DNA of 64,000 nucleotides from an uncultured Gammaproteobacteria bacterium (GTDB taxonomy: Bacteria > Pseudomonadota > Gammaproteobacteria > Steroidobacterales > Rariloculaceae): NCBI GenBank assembly GCA_964503125.1, contig CAZCZE010000039.1:67203-131202 (forward strand). The letters run 5' to 3'. A program made the translations under genes and the position numbers. The notes beneath the pieces were generated by a model that was given only the letters and a program-made list of their open reading frames with translations, ran no database searches and was not told the origin of the DNA. Shown here piece after piece: positions 4,326 to 60,838 of the stretch; the first letter of the stretch is position 1; every line of letters begins with the position of its first letter.

Positions 4326-5186
4326 ATGCCGATGGGCTTCCCCGTCGCGGGATTCGAGTCCGGGCAACGCTATGCCGCGGCGCCCGGCGACGTCTTCGTC
4401 GTGTCGTATCCGAAATGCGGCACGACCTGGGTGCAGTACATCGTCTATCTGCTGCGGAACGACGCGCGGCCGCTGACGGGCGCGGAGAGCATCAACGACG
4501 TCTTCCCCCATCTCGAGGAGGTGGGGCGCGAGGCCGTTGCGGCACTGCCCGCACCGCGGCTCATCAAGACGCACTTGCCGTTCGCGCGCACGCCGTGGCA
4601 CCCGCGCGCGAAATACATCTACGTGGCGCGCAATCCGTTCGACTGCGCCGTGTCGTTCTATCACCACACGCGCGGCTTCGTGCGGCACTACGACTTCGCC
4701 GACGGCGCGTGGGACGTCTTCTTCGAGTGTTTCCTCGCGGGTGAGGTGGATTTCGGCGACTATTTCGACAACCTGCTGTCGTGGTGGCCGCGCCGCGGCG
4801 AGTCGAACGTGCTGTTTCTCACCTACGAGCGCATGCTCGCCGACCCTGCGGCGGCCGTCACGGCGATTGCGCGCCTGCTCGGCGGCCGCGCCGAGCAGCT
4901 CGCCGCGGATCCGGGCGATCTTACGCGCGTCGTGCGCACGAGCAGCTTCGGCGAGATGCAGCGCGATCAAACCCGTTGGTCGAGCCAACGGCCGGCGGAT
5001 ATGCCAGCATTCGTCCGCAAGGGCGTCATGGGCGACTACGCAAATTACTTCTCGCCGGAGCAGGCGCGTAAACTCGCGGCGAAGATGCAGGCACGCACGA
5101 TGGGGACGGGGATCGAGACTCTTTGGCCCGAGCTTAAGCCCGCCGCGCTGGCCAGAACGTTGGGAGACCGCCATGCAGAGCGATAA
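4326..5186 (+). CDS. PAPS-dependent sulfotransferase (Sulfotransfer_1-like, cytosolic type)
   Basis: ORF 4107..5186 trimmed to in-frame ATG 4326, because the upstream part overlaps the previous gene. 5'-PSB motif YPKCGTTW and 3'-PB motif RKGVMGDYANYFS are present. Confidence 0.8.
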   Translation: MPMGFPVAGFESGQRYAAAPGDVFVVSYPKCGTTWVQYIVYLLRNDARPLTGAESINDVFPHLEEVGREAVAALPAPRLIKTHLPFARTPWHPRAKYIYVARNPFDCAVSFYHHTRGFVRHYDFADGAWDVFFECFLAGEVDFGDYFDNLLSWWPRRGESNVLFLTYERMLADPAAAVTAIARLLGGRAEQLAADPGDLTRVVRTSSFGEMQRDQTRWSSQRPADMPAFVRKGVMGDYANYFSPEQARKLAAKMQARTMGTGIETLWPELKPAALARTLGDRHAER

Positions 5187-7548: not shown

Positions 7549-7646
7549 CCCGCCAGGGACGGCGGGCATGCCGCAAATGCAGGAGCAATTTGCGGCTCCC
7601 GCCAGGGATGGCGGGCATGCAGCAAATGCAGGAGCAATTTGCTGCT
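7549..7646 (+). repeat. Two tandem 49-nt double-hairpin repeat units (REP-like family)
   Basis: Units are 7549-7597 and 7598-7646. Each is CCCGCC-AGGGAY-GGCGGG, CATGC, then (C/A)GCAAAT-GCAGGAGCA-ATTTGC(G/T). The two units differ by a compensatory C:G to A:T change in stem B. Confidence 0.85.
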
Positions 7647-7653
7647 CGCCTAG

Positions 7654-33397: not shown

Positions 33398-33507
33398 AAA
33401 TGCGCCCCAGCAGAACGAGCGGCGGGACCGACAACAACAAGACCTGACGTCCGCGAGCTAACAAGGTCTGCGATTGAGTTAGGGTCGGAATTGCCAAGGA
33501 GGGTCTT

Positions 33508-34065
33508 GTGGTCAAGCAACTCTACGGGTTGACCGCGCTGGTCGGAGCACTGACGCTCGCGTCGGCTCAGGCACAGACCGGTTCGCTCGACGAATGGGAC
33601 GCCTGCATGCTTTTGTGGGGGGACGAGTCCTTCTGCGGACCGAAGCCCGAGCCGGAGCCGGAGCCGACGCTGCCGGAGCCGGAGCCGACGCTGCCGGAGC
33701 CGGAGCCGACGCTGCCGGAGCCCGAGCCGACGCTGCCGGAGCCCGAGCCGACGCTGCCGGAGCCCGAGCCGACGTTGCCGGAGCCGGAGCCGACGCTGCC
33801 GGAGCCTCCGCCTGCGCCGCCCCCGGCGCCACCTGCGCCGCCGCCCTCGGGCGACAAGTGCAAGCGCGGCTACGACCACCGAGGCGGTGCTCGCTGGGGC
33901 CACGTAAAGATCGCGAAGATCTTGAAGCTCGTTCGTGACCGCAACGATCGCCGGGCGGATCGCGACGACCGCTCGGGTAAGGGCAAGGGCGACGACCGCT
34001 CAGGCAAGGGCAAGGGCAAGGGCAAGCACGACTCTCGCGGGTCGAGCTCGAAGTCACGCCGGTAA
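33508..34065 (+). CDS. Secreted repeat protein: signal peptide, Cys pair, (PEPEPTL)x7, poly-Pro, Lys/Arg/Gly-rich tail
   Basis: GTG start with RBS AAGGAGGG upstream. MVKQLYGLTALVGALTLASAQAQ leader. Seven exact heptad repeats. C-terminal DRSGKGKGDDRSGKGKGKGKHDSRGSSSKSRR. Confidence 0.65.
   Translation: MVKQLYGLTALVGALTLASAQAQTGSLDEWDACMLLWGDESFCGPKPEPEPEPTLPEPEPTLPEPEPTLPEPEPTLPEPEPTLPEPEPTLPEPEPTLPEPPPAPPPAPPAPPPSGDKCKRGYDHRGGARWGHVKIAKILKLVRDRNDRRADRDDRSGKGKGDDRSGKGKGKGKHDSRGSSSKSRR
33652..33798 (+). repeat. 7 x 21-nt in-frame tandem repeat (CCGGAGCCGGAGCCGACGCTG and synonymous variants)
   Basis: Read directly. Units differ only at synonymous third positions (CCG/CCC, CTG/TTG). Encodes PEPEPTL x7. 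Confidence 0.9.
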
Positions 34066-45969: not shown

Positions 45970-47607
45970 GTGGAAGTCGTCGTACCCGATCTAGGTGACT
46001 TCGCCGACGTCGAAATCATCGAGGTGCTCGTCAAACCCGGCGACTCGGTGCAGGCGGAGCAGGGACTCATCACGCTCGAGACCGAGAAGGCCACGATGGA
46101 CATTCCGTCGCCGGCCGCGGGAACGGTCACTGCGCTCAAGGTGAAAGTCGGCGACCGCGTGTCGACGGGCAGCGTGATCGCGACGCTCGAGACGGCGGCT
46201 GCGCCCGCCGTCGCCGTGGCGCCGGCCGATGCGCGCCCCGAGGACGATCGCACGGTGCGCCAACCCAAGGTGCCGCGGGCCGACGACCGTACCGTGCGCC
46301 AACCGAAGTTGCCGCCCGGCTCGCCCCCGGGACCGGTGCCGCGCACCGTCGTCGTGCCGGACCTCGGCGACTTCGCGAACGTCGAGATCATCGACGTGCT
46401 CGTCAAGGCGGGTGACGACGTCGCCGCAGAGCAGGGCCTCATCACGCTCGAGACCGAAAAGGCAGCCATGGACGTGCCGGCGCCGGAAGCCGGGCGCGTG
46501 CTCGAGGTCAAGGTGGCGGTCGGCGGCAAGGTTTCGGCGGGCGACGCCGTGCTCGTTTTGCTGCCGAGCGGCGGCGGCGCGGCACCGACGGCGCCGCCTG
46601 CGGCTGCCGCGGCACCGCAGCGCGCCGAGCCGACCGCGAAATCGGCGACCGCGCCGCGCGCGGCGGGGCAGACGCGCAGCGCCGTGGCGCCGACGCCGAC
46701 CTCGTTCGGCGAGGCGCACGCCGGTCCCTCGGTCCGCAGGCTCGCGCGCGAGCTCGGCGTGGAGCTCGGCCGCGTGCGCGGCTCGGGCGCCAAGGGCCGC
46801 GTCACGGCCGACGACGTCAAGGCGTTCGTCAAGGAGATCATGCAAGGCGGCGGCGCCGGTAGCGCGCTGCCGAGCGTGCCGGTCGTCGACTTCGCCAAAT
46901 ATGGCCGCATCGAGAGCGAGCCGCTGTCGCGCATTCAGAAGATTTCGGGCCCGCGGTTGCACGCGAGCTGGGTCAATATCCCGCACGTCACGCAGCACGA
47001 CGAAGCCGACATCACCGAGCTCGAGGAGAAACGCGCGGCGCTCAAGGAGCAGGCGCTCGAGCGCGGCATCAAGCTCACGCCGCTCGCGTTCATCGTGCGC
47101 GCCTGCGCGCTCGCGCTCGCCGAGATGCCGCACTTCAAGTCGTCGCTCGCTCCCGACGGCGCGAGCCTCGTCATCAAGCACTACACGCACATCGGCTTCG
47201 CGGCCGACACGCCGCAGGGCCTCGTCGTGCCCGTGATCCGCGATGCCGACAAGAAGGACCTCTACGAGATGGCGAAGTCGCTCGCAACGCTCAGTGAACG
47301 CGCGCGCACCGGCAAGCTCCAGCCCGACGACATCCAGGGCGGCGTGTTCACGATCTCGAGCTTGGGCGGCATCGGCGGGCGCTTCTTCACGCCCGTCATC
47401 AACGCGCCCGAGGTCGCGATCCTCGGCGTGTCGCGCAGCTCCTGGCAGCCCGTCTATCGCGACATGGCGTTCGTGCCGCGGCTGCTGCTGCCGCTGTCGT
47501 TGTCGTACGACCACCGCGTCATCGACGGCGCGAAGGCCGTGCGCTTCACGACGCGGCTCGGTGAGATCCTCGCGAATCCCGGCCAGCTCGTGGAGGCCAT
47601 TCCGTGA
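45970..47607 (+). CDS. aceF: Dihydrolipoamide acetyltransferase E2 (two lipoyl domains)
   Basis: Two lipoyl domains (..ITLETEKATMDIPSP.. and ..ITLETEKAAMDVPAP..). E3-binding PSVRRLARELGVEL. Catalytic SYDHRVIDGA. Confidence 0.95.
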   Translation: MEVVVPDLGDFADVEIIEVLVKPGDSVQAEQGLITLETEKATMDIPSPAAGTVTALKVKVGDRVSTGSVIATLETAAAPAVAVAPADARPEDDRTVRQPKVPRADDRTVRQPKLPPGSPPGPVPRTVVVPDLGDFANVEIIDVLVKAGDDVAAEQGLITLETEKAAMDVPAPEAGRVLEVKVAVGGKVSAGDAVLVLLPSGGGAAPTAPPAAAAAPQRAEPTAKSATAPRAAGQTRSAVAPTPTSFGEAHAGPSVRRLARELGVELGRVRGSGAKGRVTADDVKAFVKEIMQGGGAGSALPSVPVVDFAKYGRIESEPLSRIQKISGPRLHASWVNIPHVTQHDEADITELEEKRAALKEQALERGIKLTPLAFIVRACALALAEMPHFKSSLAPDGASLVIKHYTHIGFAADTPQGLVVPVIRDADKKDLYEMAKSLATLSERARTGKLQPDDIQGGVFTISSLGGIGGRFFTPVINAPEVAILGVSRSSWQPVYRDMAFVPRLLLPLSLSYDHRVIDGAKAVRFTTRLGEILANPGQLVEAIP

Positions 47608-49403
47608 GCCGAGTCGAAGTGCGCATCCCCGAGCTCGGGGACTTCAGCGCCGTCGACGTCATCGAGGTCCACGTGCAGGCGGGGCAGGTCATCGCCGCCG
47701 AGGATCCGCTCATCACGCTCGAGACCGACAAGGCTACGATGGACGTGCCGTCGCCGAGCGCGGGCACCGTGGTCTCGGTCGCGATCGCGAAGGGAGCCAA
47801 AGTATCCGCGGGCGATCTCGTCGTGGTGCTCGATGCGGCGGAAAGCTCGGCGAAGCCCGCGGCGAAGGCGGTGCCAGCCGCGGCGGCCAAGCCGGCGACG
47901 CCGGCACCGGCTTCAACTCGCCCGAGCCCCGTTGCGTCCGCAGCCGCGTCGCGGGCGGCACCGGCTGTCACGGCCACGGCCGCGAGTCCGCCGCCCGGCA
48001 AGCGCCTCGCCGTCATCGGCGCCGGTCCCGGCGGTTACACGGCCGCGTTCCGCGCTGCGGATCTCGGCCTCGAGGTCACGCTCGTCGAGCGGTGGCCCAC
48101 GCTCGGCGGAGTCTGCTTGAACGTGGGGTGCATTCCGTCGAAAGCGTTGCTGCACGCCGCGCACGTCATCGAGGACGCCCACGAGATGGGCGAGCGCGGT
48201 ATCGCGTTCGCCAAGCCAAAGATCGATACGACGAAGCTGCGCGGCTGGAAGAGCAGCGTCGTCAAACAGCTCACGAATGGTCTCGACACGCTCGCGAAGC
48301 AACGCAAGGTCCGTGTCGTGCGCGGCACGGCGCGCTTCGCCTCGCCCAATCAGCTCGAGGTGGAGCGTGACGGGACGCGCGAGGTCGTCGATTTCGATCA
48401 ATGCATCATCGCGGCCGGCAGCGAGCCCGCGATGCTGCCGGGCTTGCCCAACGACCCGCGCATCATGGACTCGACCGGGGCGCTCGAGCTTACCGTGCTG
48501 CCCGAGCGCATGCTCGTCATCGGCGGCGGCATCATCGGGCTCGAGATGGCGACCGTCTACGACGCACTCGGCGTCAAGGTCAGCGTCGTCGAGCTCACCA
48601 AGACTCTCATCCCGGGCTGCGACCGCGATCTGATCAGGCCGCTCGAGAAACGAATCGCGGCGCGTTACGAGGCCATCATGCTCGGCACGCGCTTCGTCAA
48701 GATGGCAGCGAGCCCGCGTGGTATCACGGTGCACTTGGAAGGCGACCAGGCGCCTGCGAAACCGCAGACCTACGGTCTCGTGCTCGTGGCCGTGGGGCGC
48801 AGCGCCAACGGGCGCAAGATCGCGGCCGAGAAGGCGGGCGTCGCCGTCGACGAGCGCGGGCTCATCAAGGTCGACAACCAGCAGCGCACCAACGTGCCGC
48901 ACATCTTCGCGATCGGCGACATCGTCGGCGCGCCGATGCTCGCGCACAAAGCGAGCCACGAGGGCAAAGTCGCGGCGGAGGTTGCGGCCGGTCTCAAGAG
49001 CTTCTTCGACGCGCGCGTCGTGCCCGCGGTCGCCTACACCGATCCCGAGGTCGCATGGGTGGGGCTCACGGAGGACGAGGCCAAGGCGCGCGGCGTCGCG
49101 TACGAGAAGGGCACGTTTCCGTGGGCCGCGAGCGCGCGCTCGCTCACGCTCGGCCGCAGCGAAGGGCTCACGAAGCTACTGTTCGACGCGGGAACGAGGC
49201 GGTTGATCGGCGCGGGGCTCGTCGGTGCGAACGCCGGCGACCTGATCGCCGAGGCCGCGCTGGCGATCGAGATGGGCACCGATGCCGCCGACATCGGCCT
49301 CACGGTGCACCCGCACCCCACGTTGTCCGAGACGATCGCCTTCGCGGCCGAGGCGGCCGAGGGCACGATCACCGATCTGTACGTGCCGAAGAAGCGTCAC
49401 TGA
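47604..49403 (+). CDS. lpdA: Dihydrolipoyl dehydrogenase E3 with N-terminal lipoyl domain
   Basis: N-terminal lipoyl domain (ITLETDKATMDVPSP). FAD motif VIGAGPGGYTAA. Redox disulfide GGVCLNVGCIPSK. C-terminal HPHPTLSE. 599 aa. Confidence 0.95.
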   Translation: MSRVEVRIPELGDFSAVDVIEVHVQAGQVIAAEDPLITLETDKATMDVPSPSAGTVVSVAIAKGAKVSAGDLVVVLDAAESSAKPAAKAVPAAAAKPATPAPASTRPSPVASAAASRAAPAVTATAASPPPGKRLAVIGAGPGGYTAAFRAADLGLEVTLVERWPTLGGVCLNVGCIPSKALLHAAHVIEDAHEMGERGIAFAKPKIDTTKLRGWKSSVVKQLTNGLDTLAKQRKVRVVRGTARFASPNQLEVERDGTREVVDFDQCIIAAGSEPAMLPGLPNDPRIMDSTGALELTVLPERMLVIGGGIIGLEMATVYDALGVKVSVVELTKTLIPGCDRDLIRPLEKRIAARYEAIMLGTRFVKMAASPRGITVHLEGDQAPAKPQTYGLVLVAVGRSANGRKIAAEKAGVAVDERGLIKVDNQQRTNVPHIFAIGDIVGAPMLAHKASHEGKVAAEVAAGLKSFFDARVVPAVAYTDPEVAWVGLTEDEAKARGVAYEKGTFPWAASARSLTLGRSEGLTKLLFDAGTRRLIGAGLVGANAGDLIAEAALAIEMGTDAADIGLTVHPHPTLSETIAFAAEAAEGTITDLYVPKKRH

Positions 49404-49952
49404 GCGCCCCTGCGGGCGCGCATGTTGAAGGCCCCGCCGGACACGCTCCGCGATCTCCCTAGCGATCTCTTGCGCCGAGCGGCCCGTTGTCGAGATGTGC
49501 TCCGCAAACTCCGGCGCTCCGTGCGCGTCGCAGCATTCGGCGGACCGTCGGAGCTGCCACTGTGTCGGGCCGCGCTTCTCGCGCGCGGCCAATCGTTCGA
49601 GAACGACCGCATGGGGTGCGGTAAGGCAGAAGTGCATAGTCGGAACGCCACGGCTTCGCAAGTAGGCGAGAAAGCCTTCGAGGTACGAGAGGTTGGAGAA
49701 GGCCATCGGCACGATGATCGTCGTGCGGAACCGGTGTGCCACGCGAATGGCGCGAGCGCCGATCAGTCGCCACGCGGCGAGATCTTGAAAATCGTCCGTT
49801 CGGCGATGGCGGGGCCACAACGGCGCAAAGCGTGACAGAACCACGCCGATGGGCTCGGGATCGATCACGGCACTCCCCGGAAGCTCGCTCGCGAGGAGGC
49901 GAGACACCGTCGTTTTACCTATTCCGAACGAACCGTTGATGAAGATGACCAT
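49176..49952 (-). CDS. P-loop NTPase (TmrB-like small ATP-binding protein; tentative) with about 75-codon read-through tail antisense to lpdA
   Basis: MVIFINGSFGIGKTTV Walker A. The recognisable domain ends near ..SAQEIAREIAERV (about 49450). There is no stop until 49176, so the last 228 nt overlap lpdA convergently. Translationally coupled to the upstream VOC ORF (6-nt gap, GAGG). Confidence 0.6.
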   Translation of the reverse strand: MVIFINGSFGIGKTTVSRLLASELPGSAVIDPEPIGVVLSRFAPLWPRHRRTDDFQDLAAWRLIGARAIRVAHRFRTTIIVPMAFSNLSYLEGFLAYLRSRGVPTMHFCLTAPHAVVLERLAAREKRGPTQWQLRRSAECCDAHGAPEFAEHISTTGRSAQEIAREIAERVRRGLQHARPQGRSVTLLRHVQIGDRALGRLGREGDRLGQRGVRVHREADVGGIGAHLDRQRGLGDQVAGVRTDEPRADQPPRSRVEQ

Positions 49953-49958
49953 AACGCC

Positions 49959-50336
49959 TCATAGCGGTTCTCGTAACTGATACTGATTGCCCTCGGGATC
50001 GACGGCATCTTGCACCGCGTGGTCGCGAAACTGCCATCTCTTCGAGCCGTCACCGATGCGGCCGCCGAGCCGCGCAGCCGCAAGCAACGTCGGTTCTATA
50101 GAAGAAACGAAGAAGACCAACTTGATCGGGGTTCGCGATCGCACCTGCGGCGGGCTCGAGATTTCGATCTGCGAAGCAACGGGTTCCGGAACTTGGACGA
50201 TCGACAGCTCGACTCCGGGCGCGGTCAAGACCGCGTAGTCACCGTGTTGAAACTCGTCCACCACGAGCCCCAACGTCGTGTAGAGCTCCACCAGACGGTC
50301 AAGGTTCTTCGCGTACAGGACGGCTGCGAGCGTCAT
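49959..50336 (-). CDS. VOC (glyoxalase/bleomycin-resistance fold) family protein
   Basis: 125 aa. MTLAAVLYAKNLDRLVELYTTLGLVVDE..IKLVFFVSSIE..DPEGNQYQLREP is a typical VOC beta-alpha-beta-beta-beta pattern. Confidence 0.65.
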   Translation of the reverse strand: MTLAAVLYAKNLDRLVELYTTLGLVVDEFQHGDYAVLTAPGVELSIVQVPEPVASQIEISSPPQVRSRTPIKLVFFVSSIEPTLLAAARLGGRIGDGSKRWQFRDHAVQDAVDPEGNQYQLREPL

Positions 50337-50343
50337 GAGCGTC

Positions 50344-50466
50344 GCCTAGCGTGCAGATCGAGGATGCTTGTCAACTAGAACGACACGAGCGGTAACCATA
50401 AGAGTGTTACCCATGTCTCCGGACTAAAGTGTCACCTATGTCCTCGACCGTTCACACCTCCGCCGA
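50344..50466 (-). repeat. Degenerate (fossil) attC-like site
   Basis: 123 bp. Arms GGTCGAGGACAT / ATCCTCGATC, central hairpin GGTAAC-N9-GTTACC. Distal end CTGCAC-GCTAGGC is the family end CTGCAC-GTTAGGC with GTT changed to GCT. The proximal heptamer is off-consensus. Confidence 0.45.
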
Positions 50467-50784
50467 CTACAGGGCCGCACAGCGTTGCGGTAACGAAGCT
50501 GGCCTAGGTGGAGCTAAGGAATCATCCAGGAGTAACGGTTCGACGCACAAATCGCCGTTGTCTTGGACGACGGCCATGTACCTCTGCGCGTTGGCACAGG
50601 TAACGCGCCAGCTCTTGCGCGAAGCATCAAGTGCCTCGGCACCGATGGCACCCTCGCAGGGAAACCCGACATCTCTGACTACGCGACCAATGGCTTTGTC
50701 CGATGGCCCTACCTGAGCCGAGCAGGCCGCGAGAAGCAGCGTGCCGAGAAGCAGAGCTGACTCCAGACGCGTGATACAGCGCAT
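50467..50784 (-). CDS. Cassette ORF: small lipoprotein (105 aa)
   Basis: Strong RBS AAGGAGGAG. Lipobox LLAACS. No family recognised. Confidence 0.6.
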   Translation of the reverse strand: MRCITRLESALLLGTLLLAACSAQVGPSDKAIGRVVRDVGFPCEGAIGAEALDASRKSWRVTCANAQRYMAVVQDNGDLCVEPLLLDDSLAPPRPASLPQRCAAL

Positions 50785-50881
50785 GACTCCTCCTTACCAA
50801 CCGAACACAGTGCAGTATGACGAGACACAACTCGCGCGAAAAGGTTAGGCGCCCGGGGCGGGCTCCAGCCGCCGATTGGGC

Positions 50882-51007
50882 GTATAACGTGCAGTTCAGC
50901 GGCCGCGCGCCGACGTCTCATGCGCGCCGCAGGCGCACAATGGCAACGCCGCGCCTGCGGCACGCACGCGAGGTGGTATCACGGTCCGCTGCAACCGCGT
51001 GTTATGC
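50882..51007 (-). repeat. attC-like recombination site (126 bp, family 1)
   Basis: Minus-strand reading GCATAAC...GTTATAC. Long imperfect palindrome, homologous to the sites at 52112 and 52890. Starts 15 nt after the stop of the upstream ORF. Confidence 0.75.
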
Positions 51008-51022
51008 GGCACCTGCGTCGCT

Positions 51023-51319
51023 TTAGCCGTTTGGGCTATGACCACAATTCCAGCAGGATTCGAATTCGCCAGGGTTATCCTCTCGGCACGAGTGACATCG
51101 CCACGACGAGTTCTCGGGGATAGCTTCCTTACGTGCTTTTAGGAAACGACGAATCAATCCGTCTCTGCGCTTGAATAGCTCAAGCCAGAAGGCGAGCTCG
51201 AAGATTACGCCGGCGGCGACAAACAACCCAAGACCAACCATGAATCCAACGCCGTAGCTGACGGCGGCAGCAGCAACTAAGGCCAGAAGAATCCAGTAGC
51301 GGTTTTCGACGATGGCCAT
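51023..51319 (-). CDS. Cassette ORF: two-TM membrane protein with C-terminal CxxC..CxxC zinc ribbon (98 aa)
   Basis: ORF 51023..51370 (TTG) trimmed to ATG 51319 with RBS GGAGGG. WRCHSCREDNPGEFESCWNCGH. Confidence 0.6.
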   Translation of the reverse strand: MAIVENRYWILLALVAAAAVSYGVGFMVGLGLFVAAGVIFELAFWLELFKRRDGLIRRFLKARKEAIPENSSWRCHSCREDNPGEFESCWNCGHSPNG

Positions 51320-51446
51320 GACTGTTCCCTCCGCACTGTGTGTTAGCGTCCGCCAGAAGAGCCAAGACAACAGAGGCGGCCAGCTCGGGTGTCACGCTAG
51401 CACAGGCGCGGCGCTTCGCAATCAATGCGCAGCGCTCCACTCTGCC

Positions 51447-51551
51447 GCATAACGCCTGGGATGAGCCGCAGGCAAAAGCGGTGCGCCCTTTGCTCTTCTT
51501 CTTGCAAAGGGCGTGACACTTTTGACTGTCAGGTCCATCCCATTGTTAGGC
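51447..51551 (-). repeat. attC-like recombination site (105 bp, different sequence family)
   Basis: Minus-strand reading GCCTAAC...GTTATGC. Arms TGGGATG/CATCCCA, central hairpin GCCCTTTGC-N12-GCAAAGGGC. 30 nt after the upstream ORF stop. Confidence 0.65.
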
Positions 51552-51581
51552 GGTACCGCTGATCCACCTCCGAAACGATGG

Positions 51582-51986
51582 TCAGGATTTGGGTCCCTCA
51601 TGATCCGTATTAAAGATCACTCGAGCGAACCTCCATTCGCCATCCGCGTTGCGGCGAAAAACGTCGATGAACTTTCCTACCAACTCCAGACGTTCGCCTC
51701 CACCTTTAGGCGTTAGTACCTCTCGAAACGGCCCAGATCCATACGCCCAAGATTCCCCAATTTCGAGTTCATCGAAGGAAAACTTCAAATCTACGTCATA
51801 GGGATCAAAAAAGTTCTGCACGGCCCAAGTGCGGACTGCATCGCTGCCAGCAGCTGATTTTTGTTCTGGCGGCATGAACTTGATGTCGTCCGTCAACGTT
51901 GCCATCCATCCGGGAACGTCCCCCTCGTTAACTGCTCGCATAAACGACTCACTCAGACTTCTGATTTTTGCTGCATCGCTTGACAT
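51582..51986 (-). CDS. Cassette ORF: NTF2/SnoaL-like (DUF4440-like) protein (134 aa)
   Basis: ORF 51582..52028 (GTG) trimmed to ATG 51986 with RBS GGGAGA. IRSLSESFMRAVNEGDVPGWMATLTDDIKFMPP..GEWRFARVIFN. Confidence 0.65.
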   Translation of the reverse strand: MSSDAAKIRSLSESFMRAVNEGDVPGWMATLTDDIKFMPPEQKSAAGSDAVRTWAVQNFFDPYDVDLKFSFDELEIGESWAYGSGPFREVLTPKGGGERLELVGKFIDVFRRNADGEWRFARVIFNTDHEGPKS

Positions 51987-52111
51987 GGCTTGCGTCTCCC
52001 ACTGTTGTTGTGCTTCTGAATTCACCACGTCCTTGTGCCGTCACTAATTATAGGAGATGGATGTGACAGGGCCCCATCTCCCCCTCCGGTTCCAGAATTG
52101 CTCTCCGTGCC

Positions 52112-52237
52112 GCCTAACGTGCAGTTCAGCGGCCGCACGACAACGTGTCATGCGCGCCGTAGGCGCACAATGGCAACGTCGCGTCTGCGGCGCGCACACG
52201 ACGCCGTATCACGGTCCGCTGCAACTGCTGGTTAGAC
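52112..52237 (-). repeat. attC-like recombination site (126 bp, family 1)
   Basis: Minus-strand reading GTCTAAC...GTTAGGC. Near-identical arms to the 50882 site. Overlaps the stop of the upstream ORF by 6 nt. Confidence 0.75.
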
Positions 52238-52858
52238 GGCACGTGCGACGCCACCTACTGCTTGATGAATTGAGAGTGCGAGCAAACCAATTCCCCCTCC
52301 GGCCAGCATCCAATCAATAGTAACGCCGAGATAAAGCGCCCCAAAGACTCCATAGAACAGCGCCGCGGAGGCCAGAACCAGAGACCACACCCGCGAATGC
52401 AGACCGCTGAAGATGATGGTGACGCCGACCACCAGCGAAAGTGATGGGCACGGAATCAGCCCGAGCGGCGCCGCATACAAGTACGTTGAAGCAGGATCTT
52501 CCTCTAGAAAGTGCGGGTATGCCCAGCCGAAGGAGACCAGCAAGAGCCCGAGCAACAGCCAGGTCGGACGAGCCCATTCAACTGGCCTGCCGCTCAAGTT
52601 CCAAAGGAGTGCAACCAGCGCGACCGATAGCGCGCCGAATGCCGCGCCATTAAATGGATTTCCGTTGATCCATGCCAACACACTCACCGAAGCCAAGAGC
52701 GGAATCAGGAGCGCACCGACTAAGCGATTCTGCGGACGGAACCCCAATAGTGCGAAAACAACCAACAAACCGAAGTAGATGTGCCATAGAACCGCCAACA
52801 TCCTCCAGGAGTCGGCAATCTTCGTTAAGCCTTCCAGAATCTCGCCAGCGGTTGGCAT
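52232..52858 (-). CDS. Cassette ORF: polytopic membrane protein (208 aa)
   Basis: ATG start 31 nt after the preceding attC. About 6 hydrophobic helices. No family recognised. Confidence 0.6.
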   Translation of the reverse strand: MPTAGEILEGLTKIADSWRMLAVLWHIYFGLLVVFALLGFRPQNRLVGALLIPLLASVSVLAWINGNPFNGAAFGALSVALVALLWNLSGRPVEWARPTWLLLGLLLVSFGWAYPHFLEEDPASTYLYAAPLGLIPCPSLSLVVGVTIIFSGLHSRVWSLVLASAALFYGVFGALYLGVTIDWMLAGGGIGLLALSIHQAVGGVARAV

Positions 52859-52889
52859 TGGTGCGGGACTGAGGTGACGTTTCCGTGCC

Positions 52890-53014
52890 GTCTAACGTTC
52901 CGGTTCAGCAGCGGCGCGATGCCGTCTGATGCGCACCGCGAGCGCATAACGAAATGACGCGCTCGCGGTGCGCACGCGTTGCCCTATCACCGTCCGCTGC
53001 AACCGGTTGTTAGG
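52890..53014 (-). repeat. attC-like recombination site (125 bp, family 1, diverged)
   Basis: Minus-strand reading GCCTAAC...GTTAGAC. Arms CCGGTTGCAGCGG / CCGCTGCTGAACCGG. 18 nt after the upstream ORF stop. Confidence 0.75.
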
Positions 53015-53032
53015 CGTCACGCGGCACCCCCC

Positions 53033-53431
53033 TTAGAGGAACCCAGGGGCCGGACGGTTCTTGCGATAAGAATCCTTTAGGGCGATCTTGCCGCTTCGAA
53101 ACGTGAATAGATCACAACCGTGGACTTCGACGCGAGCGCCGTCGGCGCGTGTTCCAGTGAACGTCCACTCCGACACTCCACGGTCGCCTCGGACAAAATG
53201 CCGGGCGTTACCCCAGTGGGCATCGGGGAAGGTTGCCCATACCTCCGCGAAGCCGGCTCGCACAGCCTCACGACCTGCATAACGGGTACCGCAAACGTCA
53301 GGGCCTGCGGAGGCCTCGAAGACACAGTCCTCGGTGAGGAACGACATGAGTGCATCGACATCGTGGCGATTCCACGCATCGGCGAACGCTTGTAGAACCT
53401 CAGTGGTGACCTCCGCCATCATGTTCGGCAT
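53033..53431 (-). CDS. Cassette ORF: SnoaL-like / NTF2-family protein (132 aa)
   Basis: RBS AAGGAGA. LQAFADAWNRHDVDALMSFLTEDCVFEAS..GCDLFTFRSGKIALKDSYRK is the classic SnoaL-like polyketide-cyclase-fold pattern. Confidence 0.7.
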   Translation of the reverse strand: MPNMMAEVTTEVLQAFADAWNRHDVDALMSFLTEDCVFEASAGPDVCGTRYAGREAVRAGFAEVWATFPDAHWGNARHFVRGDRGVSEWTFTGTRADGARVEVHGCDLFTFRSGKIALKDSYRKNRPAPGFL

Positions 53432-53473
53432 GAACCGATGTCTCCTTCACTCTGTGCACTGATGCGCATTGGC

Positions 53474-53598
53474 CGTGACGCCTAACAATAATTGGGCGGC
53501 GCGATGTCGCAGTTAAAATGCGACAAGGCGCCGCATAACGTGATGGAGTCGGCCATAAACATTTGTTTCTACTAGAGCACTGTGCGTGTTAGGCGTCA
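53474..53598 (-). repeat. Composite / degenerate attC-like element at the nth-proximal end of the array
   Basis: Three core-like heptamers: GCCTAAC 53480-53486, GCATAAC 53533-53539, GTTAGGC 53588-53594. Shares the 12-bp ends GTGACGCCTAAC / GTTAGGCGTCA and a family-1 arm (CGCATAACGTGATGGAGTCGGCC). The partner arm is missing. Confidence 0.4.
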
Positions 53599-53682
53599 AT
53601 TGGCGGCCCGGAATTATGCGGCGGGGTTGGCGCTCAGCCGAGGCACGTGTCCGTCGGGACGCTTTGACCGCGTACGCGAGTC

Positions 53683-54318
53683 CTAGGCGCGAGTCTTGTC
53701 CTTGTACTCGCAGAGCTTGGCGATCAAGCACTGCGGGCAATTCGGCTTGCGCGCCTTGCAGACGTAGCGGCCGTGCAGGATCAGCCAATGATGAGCGTGC
53801 CGCTTGAACTCGTCCGGCGTGACGCGCACGAGCTCGTCCTCGACGGCGCGCACGTTCGCGCCGGGTGCCAAACCGATGCGATTCGCCACGCGGAAGATGT
53901 GCGTGTCGACCGCGATCGTCGGCTCCCCGAACGCCGTGTTCAAGATCACGTTGGCCGTCTTGCGGCCGACGCCGGGTAGCGCTTCGAGCGCCTCGCGGTT
54001 GCGCGGCACTTCGCCGCCGTGCTCGGCGACGAGCGCGGCACACGTCTTGATGATGTTCTTCGCCTTGCTGTTGAAGAGCCCGATCGTCTTGATGTAGCCC
54101 TTGAGTCCCTCTTCGCCGAGCGCCAGGATCGCGGCGGGCGTGTTGGCCACGGGGAACAGCTTGGCGGTCGCCTTGTTGACGCTGACGTCAGTCGCCTGGG
54201 CGGACAGCACCACGGCCACGAGCAGCTCGAACGGCGACGAGTAGCCGAGCTCGGTGGCCGGCGCGGGGTCGGCCGCCGCGAATCGTTCGTAGATCTTGCG
54301 GCGCTTGGCCGCGTTCAC
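53683..54318 (-). CDS. nth: Endonuclease III
   Basis: ORF 53683..54972 trimmed to in-frame GTG 54318 (GTGA overlap with the rnfE stop). HhH-GPD LPGVGRKTANVIL. Fe-S cluster CKARKPNCPQCLIAKLC. Confidence 0.9.
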   Translation of the reverse strand: MNAAKRRKIYERFAAADPAPATELGYSSPFELLVAVVLSAQATDVSVNKATAKLFPVANTPAAILALGEEGLKGYIKTIGLFNSKAKNIIKTCAALVAEHGGEVPRNREALEALPGVGRKTANVILNTAFGEPTIAVDTHIFRVANRIGLAPGANVRAVEDELVRVTPDEFKRHAHHWLILHGRYVCKARKPNCPQCLIAKLCEYKDKTRA

Positions 54319-60694: not shown

Positions 60695-60838
60695 CGCGGG
60701 CAGGGATGCCCGCGGTAGAGCAACGCAAGGAGCAGTTGCCGACGCGGGCAGGGATGCCCGCGATAGAGCAACGCAAGGAGCAGTTGCCGACGCGGGCAGG
60801 GATGCCCGCGGTAGAGCAACGCAAGGAGCAGTTGCCGC
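60695..60838 (+). repeat. Three tandem 48-nt double-hairpin repeat units (REP-like family)
   Basis: Units are 60695-60742, 60743-60790 and 60791-60838. Each is CGCGGGC-AGGGAT-GCCCGCG, (G/A)TAGA, GCAAC-GCAAGGAGCA-GTTGC, CGA. A further GGCAGC-N7-GCTGCC hairpin lies at 60661-60679. Confidence 0.85.

Follow-up and report, generated by a model that had tools for sequence, protein, structure and literature searches.

CALINs are defined by two or more attC sites together with the lack of an intI gene within 4 kb, and the origins proposed for them include intI loss (PMC4889954). Another route starts from cassette insertion at genomic GWT sites, which is efficient and has been proposed to yield SALINs and small CALINs (bioRxiv 10.1101/2022.09.11.507474). 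Sedentary chromosomal integrons, such as the Vibrio superintegrons and those of Xanthomonas, form a related group; the Xanthomonas integrons lie at ilvD, and intI is inactivated in many of them (bioRxiv 10.1101/2025.06.18.660453). The attI1 site of class 1 integrons consists of a simple site together with DR1 (GTTACGC) and DR2 (PMC3146285).

The region downstream of nth in the 64-kb stretch of DNA analysed here (the window) is very probably a sedentary chromosomal integron cassette array without its integrase; as no integrase or integrase remnant lies in the window, it is by definition a CALIN. The integron-type gene-cassette array is genuine, and the initial annotation was right in this core reading, its CALIN-type assignment agreeing with the published definition (at least two attC sites, no intI; PMC4889954). 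As in described CALINs (PMC4889954), the attC sites (at least two) lie on one strand, no intI or pseudogene is found within 4-10 kb, about five cassettes is a typical size, and the cargo, which includes no resistance genes, has for the most part no known function. It differs in that a conserved attI-like site and a promoter-like motif are still attached to the array, and in that, among close relatives, the cassettes at one chromosomal locus have been replaced completely while its ends stayed fixed. CALIN analyses cannot score an attI-like site because attI is unknown for most integrons, and we know of no general model for attI sites. CALINs being an already known class, the present array looks like another example, in which the cassette docking site has apparently been retained.

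Read on the minus strand, nth is followed by a conserved block (site F), five cassettes between 50.3 and 53.6 kb of the window, the glyoxalase-like and kinase-like genes, and finally the convergent lpdA:

53683..54318, minus strand: nth (endonuclease III, 211 aa, GTG start; Pfam HhH-GPD/HHH)
53480..53618, minus strand: site F, putative attI-like platform block, ending at the crossover G|TTAGGC (G at 53486)
52896..53485, minus strand: cassette 1 (590 bp), ORF 53431-53033 plus attC A
52118..52895, minus strand: cassette 2 (778 bp), ORF 52858-52232 plus attC B
51453..52117, minus strand: cassette 3 (665 bp), ORF 52028 (or 51986)-51582 plus attC C
50888..51452, minus strand: cassette 4 (565 bp), ORF 51322-51023 plus attC D
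50350..50887, minus strand: cassette 5 (538 bp), ORF 50784-50467 plus decayed attC E
49959..50336, minus strand: Glyoxalase_6-like gene (125 aa), native neighbour and conserved distal end
49404..49952, minus strand: AAA_33 kinase-like gene (Pfam AAA_33)
47604..49403, plus strand: lpdA (E3 with N-terminal lipoyl domain; Pfam), convergent on the array, conserved right flank

The five cassette lengths given by the initial annotation are reproduced when each is taken from the G of a GTT to that of the following one (53486, 52896, 52118, 51453, 50888, 50350). Its short minus-strand ORFs, each with an imperfect palindrome (RYYYAAC...GTTRRRY at its bounds) 0-30 nt behind it, are present essentially as described, as is the same spurious plus-strand peptide at two places in the ORF track. 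Most of its coordinates are exact, but site A starts at 53015 rather than 53014, and the GCCTAAC of a sixth, 'composite' site lies at 53594-53588 rather than at 53598. The reported GC drop is also evident, with 59.2% in the island vs 67.5% in the remaining window, and 48.3%, 55.0% and 78.3% in the 60-nt lines starting at 51961, 51901 and 48001. The cassettes share the orientation of nth, the last gene of an rnf-nth operon whose order (rnfA..E-nth) recurs in relatives; its product is 100% identical to P0121, and no terminator-like site was found 3' of it. The array does not span the whole lpdA-nth interval as had been supposed. Positions 49404-50343 were considered as cassette cargo and rejected, as the glyoxalase-like and kinase genes there are native and conserved beside lpdA in relatives. 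The glyoxalase-like gene beside lpdA has 78-85% identity in L202, L203, L204/L207 and L209, and lpdA itself has 81-94% identity in L122, L203 and L204.

Each of the five cassettes is promoterless and holds one gene; cassettes 1-4 end in structured attC sites (A-D) and the fifth in decayed site E. Sites A, B, C and D are bona fide attC sites:

53015-52890, minus strand: attC A (R2 E 5.8e-5; fold z -5.7)
52237-52112, minus strand: attC B (R2 E 3.4e-4; fold z -4.4)
51551-51447, minus strand: attC C (R2 E 1.3e-7, full model length; fold z -6.8)
51007-50882, minus strand: attC D (R2 E 1.7e-3; fold z -2.0)

R2 is a covariance model from 63 attC sites, all of other genomes, which serves as a surrogate for the attC model of IntegronFinder and is based on one widespread attC family. 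Its structure is backed by covariation, with 102 double-sided changes vs 44 +/- 5 in shuffles and 18-40 when the partners were slid. Searching the whole 64 kb with R2, an attC-model check of the kind that the initial annotation had suggested, returned four significant matches, exactly A-D and all on the minus strand, with the next best at E 0.16; site C lies outside the motif family from which the R2 sequences were collected. The fold z-scores compare single-strand DNA folding with 200 shuffles, over which site D gains only marginally. The hallmarks of attC sites, namely the heptamers, bulged bases at top-strand positions 16 and 23 and a long foldback, are seen in the sequences and folds. The homology claimed for the sites at 50882, 52112 and 52890 was confirmed (D vs B 86% over 137 nt; A 73-76% over 83 nt), and the 19-nt motif GTTGCAGCGGACNGTGATA occurs three times vs 0.02 expected. 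Beyond the window, the first attC of L207 shares 89% identity with site D, and a site in the L035 array shares 88% with the left half of site C.

The cassette boundaries carry a signature of recombination. The TTRRRY past each crossover complements the inverse core of the cassette's own attC (the next site), not the core of the same site, in all four transitions (F to A, A to B, B to C and C to D). Cassette 1 starts with TTAGGCGTCACG, complementary to its own inverse-core flank CGTGACGCCTAA; cassette 2 starts with TTAGAC and has the inverse core GTCTAAC, within which the stop TAA of its ORF lies; cassette 4 starts with TTATGC and has the inverse core GCATAAC. This complementarity of each cassette to its own inverse core is the product of G|TT site-specific recombination.

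These observations bear on whether the palindromes are dispersed repeats of the REP/MITE type, unrelated to integrons, with the small ORFs as ordinary accessory genes. The palindromes are GC-rich, imperfect and intergenic, as such repeats would be, and Rfam holds no matching family, returning only spurious miRNA-hairpin matches. However, no copies turn up elsewhere in the 64 kb, where a genome-wide family had been named as a possible objection, and those present all point the same way. Arrays with a single orientation are also formed by this family beside integron integrases in other phyla: more than 120 genome stretches, drawn from many phyla, contain the motif TAAC-N5-GTTGCAGCGGAC, with up to 7 exact copies per same-orientation array, and complete attC sites (52-132 nt) make up 100 of the 140 instances. 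On TIGR02249, whose cutoff for an integron integrase is 265 bits, seven neighbouring ORFs reach 396-469 bits, and a whole or partial intI occurs in 16 of 120 8-kb stretches. Together with the cassette-specific core complementarity, this leaves the dispersed-repeat explanation effectively refuted.

The cargo consists of small proteins. Cassette 1 encodes a 132-aa SnoaL/NTF2-like protein (Pfam SnoaL_2, 1e-26), cassette 2 a 208-aa multi-pass membrane protein without a match in Pfam and NCBIfam searches, cassette 3 a SnoaL_2/DUF4440-like protein of 148 aa (134 aa if it starts at the ATG at 51986), cassette 4 a 99-aa protein with one TM segment and a C-terminal CxxC...CxxC, and cassette 5 a 105-aa lipoprotein-like product. 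Calling all cargo uncharacterised was therefore a slight overstatement, since two cassettes encode SnoaL/NTF2-fold proteins (Pfam), and the strong RBSs reported for the ORFs are found in cassettes 1, 3, 4 and 5 but not for the 208-aa and glyoxalase-like ORFs.

At the distal end of the array lies one further site:

50466-50344, minus strand: site E, decayed attC (R' core GCTAGGC)

Site E is a decayed, unfolded attC remnant whose GTT core is now GCT. Its 3' end GATCTGCACGCTAGGC matches GAACTGCACGTTAGGC of site B at 14 of 16 positions, and homology to relatives restarts at 50346-50355, the distal end of cassette 5. It gave no R2 match in the search of the window and a fold z of +0.15; it is a degenerate attC, as had been noted, and does not count among the good sites. 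The five to six attC sites of the initial annotation reduce to four good ones, as site F is not an attC either.

Between nth and cassette 1, site F contains the following elements:

53571..53599, minus strand: promoter-like motif TTGACG-N17-TCTAGT, candidate Pc, pointing into the cassettes
53533..53539, minus strand: core-like direct repeat GTTATGC (alignment with relatives)
53498..53532, minus strand: hairpin in the folds, GGCGCC..TTGTCGCA / TGCGACA..GCGCC
53480..53497, minus strand: putative attI-type simple site GCCCAAT-TATT-G|TTAGGC, inverted core-like boxes flanking the crossover

Site F is most likely a docking-site remnant of putative attI type. This block of ~140 nt is conserved in three relatives (L207, L209 and L210) up to the crossover G|TT, with 69-82% identity over the 130 nt before it and 57-64%, the level of unrelated sequence, past it; it is absent from the array-free relatives L208/L211. 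The promoter-like hexamers and their spacing are kept in all four F blocks, which makes the motif a candidate Pc; a consensus promoter scan, which requires A at position 2 of the -10 hexamer (here TCTAGT), did not call it. The GTTATGC repeat reads GTTAGGC in L207, GATTATC in L209 and GCTATGC in L210, the hairpin is retained in L207 with other paired bases (GCCGCA/TGCGGC, GGCGGC/GCCGCC), and the simple site reads CCTAATTAATG|TTAGGC in L209, GCCTAAATATAG|TTGAAC in L207 and GTCTCATTGCTG|TTATGC in L210. As in attI1, inverted core-like boxes surround the crossover (G|TTAGGC), the upstream repeat resembles DR1 and DR2 (PMC3146285), and conservation stops exactly at the crossover. Unlike attI1, F has a ~35-nt hairpin between the repeat and the simple site and no adjacent intI, and it shows no homology to attI1 in sequence. 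The initial annotation saw no room for attI or Pc here, which is contradicted by this attI-like block and its conserved promoter-like motif.

An improbable alternative is that an integrase inserted cassettes at a non-att genomic site (attC x attG) where a platform was never present, F being then, in line with the initial annotation, either the earliest cassette to insert, without an ORF, or that cassette's attC. Such insertion at GWT sites is efficient and a proposed source of SALINs and small CALINs (bioRxiv 10.1101/2022.09.11.507474), the array sits just 3' of an expressed operon, where inserts can be expressed, and F in the window has GCCTAAC...GTTAGGC ends and a fold z of -3.7. However, F was rejected as an attC: its GCCTAAC, which falls in the spacer of the promoter-like motif, is unconserved and reads GCATATC in three relatives, while the block is conserved up to the crossover; it has no L''/L' pairing or bulge; and R2 matches only its 5' half, at E 8.3 at best. 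A secondary-site G|TT junction is missing on the nth side, where the 88 nt that separate nth from F contain no GTT, and an attC-only origin leaves the conserved 140-nt block and the inverted-box simple site at the crossover unexplained. The locus resembles SALINs (Loot et al., bioRxiv 10.1101/2022.09.11.507474) in that its cassettes sit outside a complete integron and lie 3' of a host operon which shares their orientation and could express them, and in a dependence, which we infer here, on an integrase supplied from elsewhere. It differs in lacking a G|WT junction at the nth-side boundary and in comprising a multi-cassette array with a conserved docking block, not a single inserted cassette.

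The reported lack of a tyrosine-recombinase ORF was borne out: tblastn with seven IntI proteins gave nothing better than E 0.06 in the window, where no integrase gene or remnant was found, and no match in the first relatives' loci examined. In L202-L206 the only matches were the IS91-linked 283-aa recombinases of L204, and the Pfam gene tables of all relatives' loci list no other tyrosine recombinase.

Relatives whose Nth is 94-96% identical have other cassettes between these conserved ends. DNA homology between the window and relatives within the island is restricted to F, the attC sites and the glyoxalase-kinase block, and the relatives bear attC arrays of their own. Where the initial annotation had asked whether relatives carry the same ORFs without palindromes, they instead carry different ORFs with attC sites. 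It had also proposed to look for an empty site; the array is absent from L208, L211 and L212, where a 5' remnant of the glyoxalase gene (its first 19-20 codons) directly abuts nth. The different cassettes between the same ends, together with the array-free relatives, suggest cassette turnover by an integrase encoded elsewhere, a trans-acting recombination drawn from comparative patterns alone with 64 kb of the genome visible. All occupied relatives share the intI-less nth-F junction, yet their first cassettes all differ, each attached precisely at the G|TT of F, which suggests that cassettes entered at F when the locus was already without intI. Alternatively, the differing arrays could spread by homologous recombination via the conserved flanks.

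The array might also be a pure relic of a complete integron (intI-Pc-attI-cassettes) from which intI was deleted, now frozen and decaying, a possible but rather doubtful reading under which the differences between relatives either predate intI loss or arose when whole arrays were exchanged by homologous recombination. The loss of intI is among the origins put forward for CALINs (PMC4889954), and there are signs of decay, such as the unfolded site E with its GTT to GCT change. The kinase-like ORF has lost its stop codon: it meets no stop before lpdA and continues to 49176, antisense to lpdA, its homologues have 173-194 aa, and its residues 185-258 find no counterpart in any relative other than the antisense of lpdA. 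DUF1810, which lies 3' of the kinase in L202 and L204, has been deleted here. Moreover, in L202 and the distal half of L209 cassette-like genes are closely packed and lack attC sites, which suggests domestication. Against a frozen array, A-D are intact and well folded, with perfect GTT cores and cassette-specific complementarity, the first cassettes of the occupied relatives differ at a common intI-less junction, and no intI fragment was detected in the window (tblastn).

The reading of a sedentary array served from elsewhere fits much of what is known of sedentary chromosomal integrons, with a fixed chromosomal location within a clade, attC sites related within the array (A, B and D), cassettes that vary between close relatives, and small proteins of unknown function, SnoaL/NTF2 folds included. 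It departs from them in having no intI, not even a pseudogene, here or in the occupied relatives examined, in being short, and in a platform lying right against the stop codon of a co-oriented housekeeping gene. Based on these comparisons, we propose that an integron integrase, its gene lying at another place in the genome or on a visiting element, has inserted cassettes at the G|TT of F and may be doing so still; this enzyme would also excise cassettes between attC sites. The platform would have lost intI, or never had it, in the common ancestor of the occupied lineages, and transcription of the cassettes may start at the promoter-like motif in F, reach them as read-through of the co-oriented rnf-nth operon, or both.

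The region from the lpdA stop (49403) to the nth stop (53683) has a GC content of 59.2%, compared with 67.5% in the remaining window, and contains seven minus-strand ORFs in place of long, GC3-rich host genes. Behind each of five of these ORFs, at a distance of 0-30 nt, lies an imperfect palindrome that on the minus strand is bounded by RYYYAAC...GTTRRRY. With the crossover placed at the G of each GTT (53486, 52896, 52118, 51453, 50888 and 50350), the cassette lengths given in the initial annotation (590, 778, 665, 565 and 538 bp) are reproduced; its coordinates mostly hold as well, with slight shifts for the start of site A, at 53015, and for the "composite" GCCTAAC, at 53594. Four significant attC sites, which end cassettes 1-4, lie on the minus strand within 2.1 kb:

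53015-52890, minus strand: attC A, GCCTAAC..GTTAGAC, inverse core R'' at the 5' and core R' at the 3' end of the top strand
52237-52112, minus strand: attC B, GTCTAAC..GTTAGGC, inverse core R'' 5', core R' 3'
51551-51447, minus strand: attC C, GCCTAAC..GTTATGC, inverse core R'' 5', core R' 3'
51007-50882, minus strand: attC D, GCATAAC..GTTATAC, inverse core R'' 5', core R' 3'

All four carry the attC cores, RYYYAAC (R'') and GTTRRRY (R'), in the same orientation as the cassette ORF, and the plus strand of the window is the bottom strand of every site. As single-stranded DNA they fold into a long hairpin in which the R boxes are paired, the spacer is unpaired and the L box holds a bulged base (fold z-scores: A -5.7, B -4.4, C -6.8, D -2.0). 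In A, B and D, GTT[G]CAGCGG pairs with CCGCTGAAC and the second bulge is the A of GGACG; their bulges, at top-strand positions 16 and 23, occupy the positions seen in the consensus of related sites from foreign genomes, which are also those of the class 1 site attC_aadA7.

Rfam contains no attC family, and scanning the region with it returned only spurious matches to plant and animal miRNA hairpins; independent evidence of attC identity was therefore needed. We used a covariance model, R2, whose 63 short attC sites all came from other genomes and whose hairpin was set by hand, as a surrogate for the attC covariance model criterion of IntegronFinder, whose own model it is not. A first model with an automatic RNAalifold structure, which kept just 3 base pairs, was discarded and rebuilt in this form. 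The R2 structure is backed by 102 double-sided changes, where shuffles give 44 +/- 5 and slid controls 18-40, and the model finds arrays adjoining intI in other genome stretches (L103, L104, L063 and others). Run over the whole 64 kb with filters off, this version of the covariance-model check proposed in the initial annotation gave significant minus-strand matches at A-D (C, E 1.3e-7 at full length; A, 5.8e-5; B, 3.4e-4; D, 1.7e-3), and nothing else under E 0.16 within the 64-kb window. Site C provides independent confirmation, because it lacks the motif used to gather the R2 sequences.

The cassette boundaries carry a signature of recombination. In four of four cases the bases after G|TT complement the inverse core of the next site, that is, of the cassette's own attC, and not the core of the same site (TTAGGC/GCCTAA, TTAGAC/GTCTAA, TTAGGC/GCCTAA and TTATGC/GCATAA), while the two cores inside each site mismatch. 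For cassette 1 this inverted complementarity reaches 15 nt. Such pairing is the footprint of independent site-specific insertions at G|TT.

Sites A, B and D are homologous to one another, as had been noticed from the sequence, and have in common a 19-nt motif that occurs three times where 0.02 occurrences are expected by chance. The motif TAAC-N5-GTTGCAGCGGAC is present in more than 120 genome stretches from Acidobacteriota, Chloroflexota, Planctomycetota, Gemmatimonadota, Cyanobacteria and several proteobacterial classes, often in same-orientation arrays (seven exact copies in one stretch, L033), and 100 of 140 motif instances belong to complete attC sites of 52-132 nt. The family consensus is GCCTAAC-AACCG-GTTGCAGCGGACGG...CCGCCGCTGAAC-CGGAGC-GTTAGGC, with bulges at top-strand positions 16 and 23. 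Seven ORFs neighbouring motif copies are integron integrases (TIGR02249, 396-469 bits, cutoff 265), and 16 of 120 motif-bearing 8-kb stretches contain a whole or partial intI. The palindromes might instead have been a dispersed REP or MITE repeat; no copies lie outside 50.8-53.1 kb in the 64 kb examined, and the orientation is the same throughout. Together, the structure, the integrase-linked relatives, the R2 matches and the recombination signature exclude that explanation.

Several other features of this family and of repeats in the window were recorded. The bulged L'' base in the family consensus and in A, B and D is G on the top and C on the recombinogenic bottom strand; in class 1 sites of the aadA7 type the equivalent bulge carries C on the top strand and G on the bottom one. 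Bulge geometry is kept while base identity differs. Three family sites elsewhere (L010, ~2068-2088; L075, ~5001-5021; L093, left end) are interrupted at one position, in the pattern ...GCAGCGGACG|..ATAGTTCCTTCG.TTTAGTGGACACCCTGA.CTAAC..., which looks like the work of an attC-targeting insertion sequence. In an uncultured gammaproteobacterial array (L035, 1835-2002), an internally deleted attC of the B/D type, GCCTAACAAGCAGTTGCAGCGGACCGTGATACGGCG|GCGTTAGC, comes immediately after a truncated homologue of site C (88% over 67 nt), so that the two attC types seen in the window occur together in another cassette pool as well. Intergenic tandem repeats at 60695-60837 (48 nt x 3, 97% matching) and 7549-7647 (49 nt x 2) have in each unit a GC-rich hairpin (CGCGGGCAGGGATGCCCGCG and CCCGCCAGGGACGGCGGG) and then GCAA..GCAGGAGCA.TT, and may be a REP-like family unrelated to the attC sites. 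A 21-nt unit, GCCGGAGCCGGAGCCGACGCT, repeated 7.4 times at 97% identity (33651-33806), probably lies inside a coding ORF (33478-34065, plus strand).

The array had been read as integrase-less and of CALIN type, and both descriptions were borne out: there is no tyrosine-recombinase ORF within 49.4-54.3 kb, and tblastn of the 64-kb window with seven IntI proteins gave a best E of 0.06. No intI lies within the ~4 kb of the array that defines a complete integron. CALINs are defined as at least two attC sites with no intI nearby (PMC4889954), and the array, having four attC sites on one strand and not a single intI in 64 kb, falls under this published definition. The locus therefore belongs to a class that is already known and common; genome surveys contain more CALINs than complete integrons, and both the origin and the activity of CALINs are unsettled (PMC4889954; bioRxiv 10.1101/2022.09.11.507474). 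The clade-specific location and the variable cargo of the locus also recall sedentary chromosomal integrons.

The initial annotation had counted five to six attC sites, of which A-D stand. The degenerate site that ends cassette 5 (E, 50466-50344) failed the core test (GTGTGAAC..GCTAGGC), has no R2 match and has a fold z-score of +0.15; its 3' end, GATCTGCACGCTAGGC, agrees with GAACTGCACGTTAGGC of site B at 14 of 16 positions. E is a decayed attC in which the GTT core has turned into GCT. The "composite" site (F, a block at 53480-53618 downstream of nth, core sequence AATTGACGCATATCACGCACAGTGCTCTAGTAGAAACAAATG) is not an attC. Searching for homologues of Nth, the endonuclease III that closes the rnf-nth operon, and reading their contigs revealed three more occupied loci:

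L207: occupied locus, Nth 96% identical
L209: occupied locus, Nth 94% identical
L210: occupied locus, Nth 96% identical

All three have a homologue of F 60-75 nt after nth, with 69-82% identity to the window's block over the 130 nt preceding the crossover. Similarity falls to background (57-64%) right after ...ATTATTG|TT, ...TTAATG|TT, ...ATATAG|TT and ...TTGCTG|TT, and different first cassettes start at this crossover in the window and in each of the three relatives. The GCCTAAC of F is GCATATC in the three relatives, and the lack of conservation of this inverse core counts against F as an attC. The block contains the following elements:

53599-53571, minus strand, toward the cassettes: promoter-like motif TTGACG-N17-TCTAGT, strongly conserved in four of four F blocks
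53539-53533, minus strand: core-like repeat GTTATGC
53532-53498, minus strand: hairpin, kept in L207 with other paired bases
at the crossover: simple site with inverted boxes, (G)CCYAA-N5-G|TTAGGC

The promoter-like motif was missed by a consensus promoter scan. Published attI sites are conserved within their lineage and have a simple site, in some cases together with core-like direct repeats, of which DR1 of attI1, GTTACGC, is an example (PMC3146285). F is alike in its lineage conservation, its simple site, its core-like repeat and a G|TT crossover that joins the first cassette, and we therefore infer that it is what remains of an attI-type platform and includes a candidate Pc; the pattern is observed in the alignments, and the function is deduced from it. 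The initial view that there was no room for attI or Pc finds no support. A small ORF in F, 26 aa long in the window, is not considered a gene, its frame being unconserved in relatives, and a search for the F block in plasmids gave no match.

The right side of the locus was also clarified by comparison with relatives. Glyoxalase-like and kinase genes (49404-50336) lie beside lpdA in L203, L204/L207 and L202 (73-85% protein identity; LpdA identity 94% for L203 and 87% for L204/L207), L209 retains of this pair the glyoxalase-like gene alone (81%), and a DUF1810 gene follows the kinase in L202 and L204. Upstream of the glyoxalase-kinase block these relatives have attC arrays of their own, as matched by R2, in which none of the window's five cassette ORFs is found; DNA homology of the island to relatives is limited to F, the attC sites and the glyoxalase-kinase block. 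Three relatives are array-free (L208, L211 and L212; Nth 92-95%); in them nth runs into a 63-nt remnant of the glyoxalase 5' end, with its TGA overlapping the remnant's ATG, and DUF1810 and lpdA come next. This remnant joined to nth shows that glyoxalase, kinase and DUF1810 are native neighbours of nth and that F and the cassettes were inserted at the nth/glyoxalase junction; it also rules out the glyoxalase-kinase pair as a terminal two-gene cassette. The array had been taken to extend from lpdA to nth, which holds for the cassettes and fails for the native genes at 49404-50336, which are not cargo. The empty site that had been sought thus exists, with the glyoxalase remnant and DUF1810, rather than direct adjacency, between nth and lpdA. 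A decayed core (GCTAGGC or CCTAGGC) lies directly upstream of the glyoxalase gene in the window and in L204.

It should be noted that the "empty" loci are not pristine: in L208 (928-1021), L211 (10634-10727) and L212 the glyoxalase remnant is joined to an apparent kinase 3' end before DUF1810, which looks like an internal deletion of glyoxalase-kinase. In the window, the AAA_33 kinase ORF (49176-49952, minus strand; boundary 49404) has no stop of its own and runs 228 nt further antisense through the lpdA 3' end, its homologues being 173-194 aa long. The DUF1810 gene, present after the kinase in L202 and L204, is absent from the window and L203, which points to its loss by a small deletion at the boundary with lpdA. 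In more distant relatives the lpdA-nth gap holds unrelated genes or is ~110 bp (L122 and others), and neither attC nor intI was found in L122, L125, L136, L140, L162 or L173.

Two tandem IS91-family copies are located at the F crossover of L207, each with a 283-aa tyrosine recombinase that has just 31-34% identity to IntI. The repeated unit also encodes a Y2 transposase, and the two copies together lie at L207 10820-15500, on the same contig as L204 1-4055. The copies start exactly after GTTGAAC at the F-like crossover and both end in ...GTTGAAC|TAAACCGC, suggesting rolling-circle or one-ended transposition into the docking site.

How the array arose may be considered in light of these ends. 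Cassettes could have been inserted at a secondary site (attG), an alternative that fits poorly: the nth junction reads ...CGCGC|CTAGGAC..., followed by 60-75 nt and the conserved F, and not a host G|WT joined to a cassette start; the first 88 nt downstream of nth contain no GTT; and the conservation of F is hard to accommodate. At the locus we found as traces of insertion neither an intI fragment nor a G|TT junction at nth, and flanking direct repeats (target duplication or attL/attR) were rejected, local alignment of the left and right junctions being no better than shuffles. CTAGG is present at both ends of the inserted DNA (53680-53690 and 50344-50352); the left end reads ...CGCGC|CTAGGACTCG, the source of the nth TAG stop, and the right end ...TGCACG|CTAGGCGAC.

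Among close relatives, the left end (nth and F, integrase-less) and the right end (decayed core and glyoxalase) are fixed, whereas the intervening DNA is different in each; the stretch from nth to the array lacks intI in every occupied relative. Most likely, cassettes are taken up at the G|TT of F and lost by recombination between attC sites, both steps presumably catalysed by an integron integrase encoded elsewhere. A less likely alternative is a frozen relic whose array diversity comes from homologous exchange of whole arrays. Going further, and only tentatively, we propose that F may be a working integrase-free docking station, a Pc-like promoter and an attI-type site fused to the rnf-nth 3' end, which would have been without an integrase in cis since before the occupied lineages diverged (Nth 94-100%) and would still gain and lose cassettes through IntI acting in trans, from another integron of the genome or a transient mobile element. 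Expression of the cassettes would probably depend on the promoter-like motif in F, on read-through from the co-oriented rnf-nth operon, or on both; no terminator-like site was found after nth.

The cargo comprises two proteins of the SnoaL/NTF2 fold, a membrane protein of 208 aa, a zinc-ribbon-like protein of 99 aa whose tail carries CxxC...CxxC, and a lipoprotein-like protein of 105 aa; it is ordinary for environmental cassettes and without evident clinical relevance. The SnoaL/NTF2 gene of cassette 1 (53033-53431) has 82% DNA identity to a gene of Azoarcus sp. KH32C plasmid pAZKH (NC_020548.1, 118753-119157), which lies within a run of closely spaced small genes; the plasmid gene was rejected as a cassette, having no detectable attC flanking it. 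Related genes are carried by Polaromonas and Variovorax plasmids (77-79% identity).

Two features of this locus go beyond what is routine for a CALIN: an attI-like and Pc-like block kept without any integrase, and clean comparative evidence of complete cassette replacement between conserved ends. The locus offers an unusually clean natural comparison at one chromosomal site: some close relatives have it empty, in others it is occupied, and the occupied sites have an identical integrase-less left end, a fixed right end and wholly different cassettes. If F is a functional attI, it becomes testable here whether integrase-less arrays recruit cassettes in trans and whether transcription of a host operon replaces Pc. 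Should the docking-station reading be true, at least some CALINs would be active satellite arrays with their own attI, and not debris.
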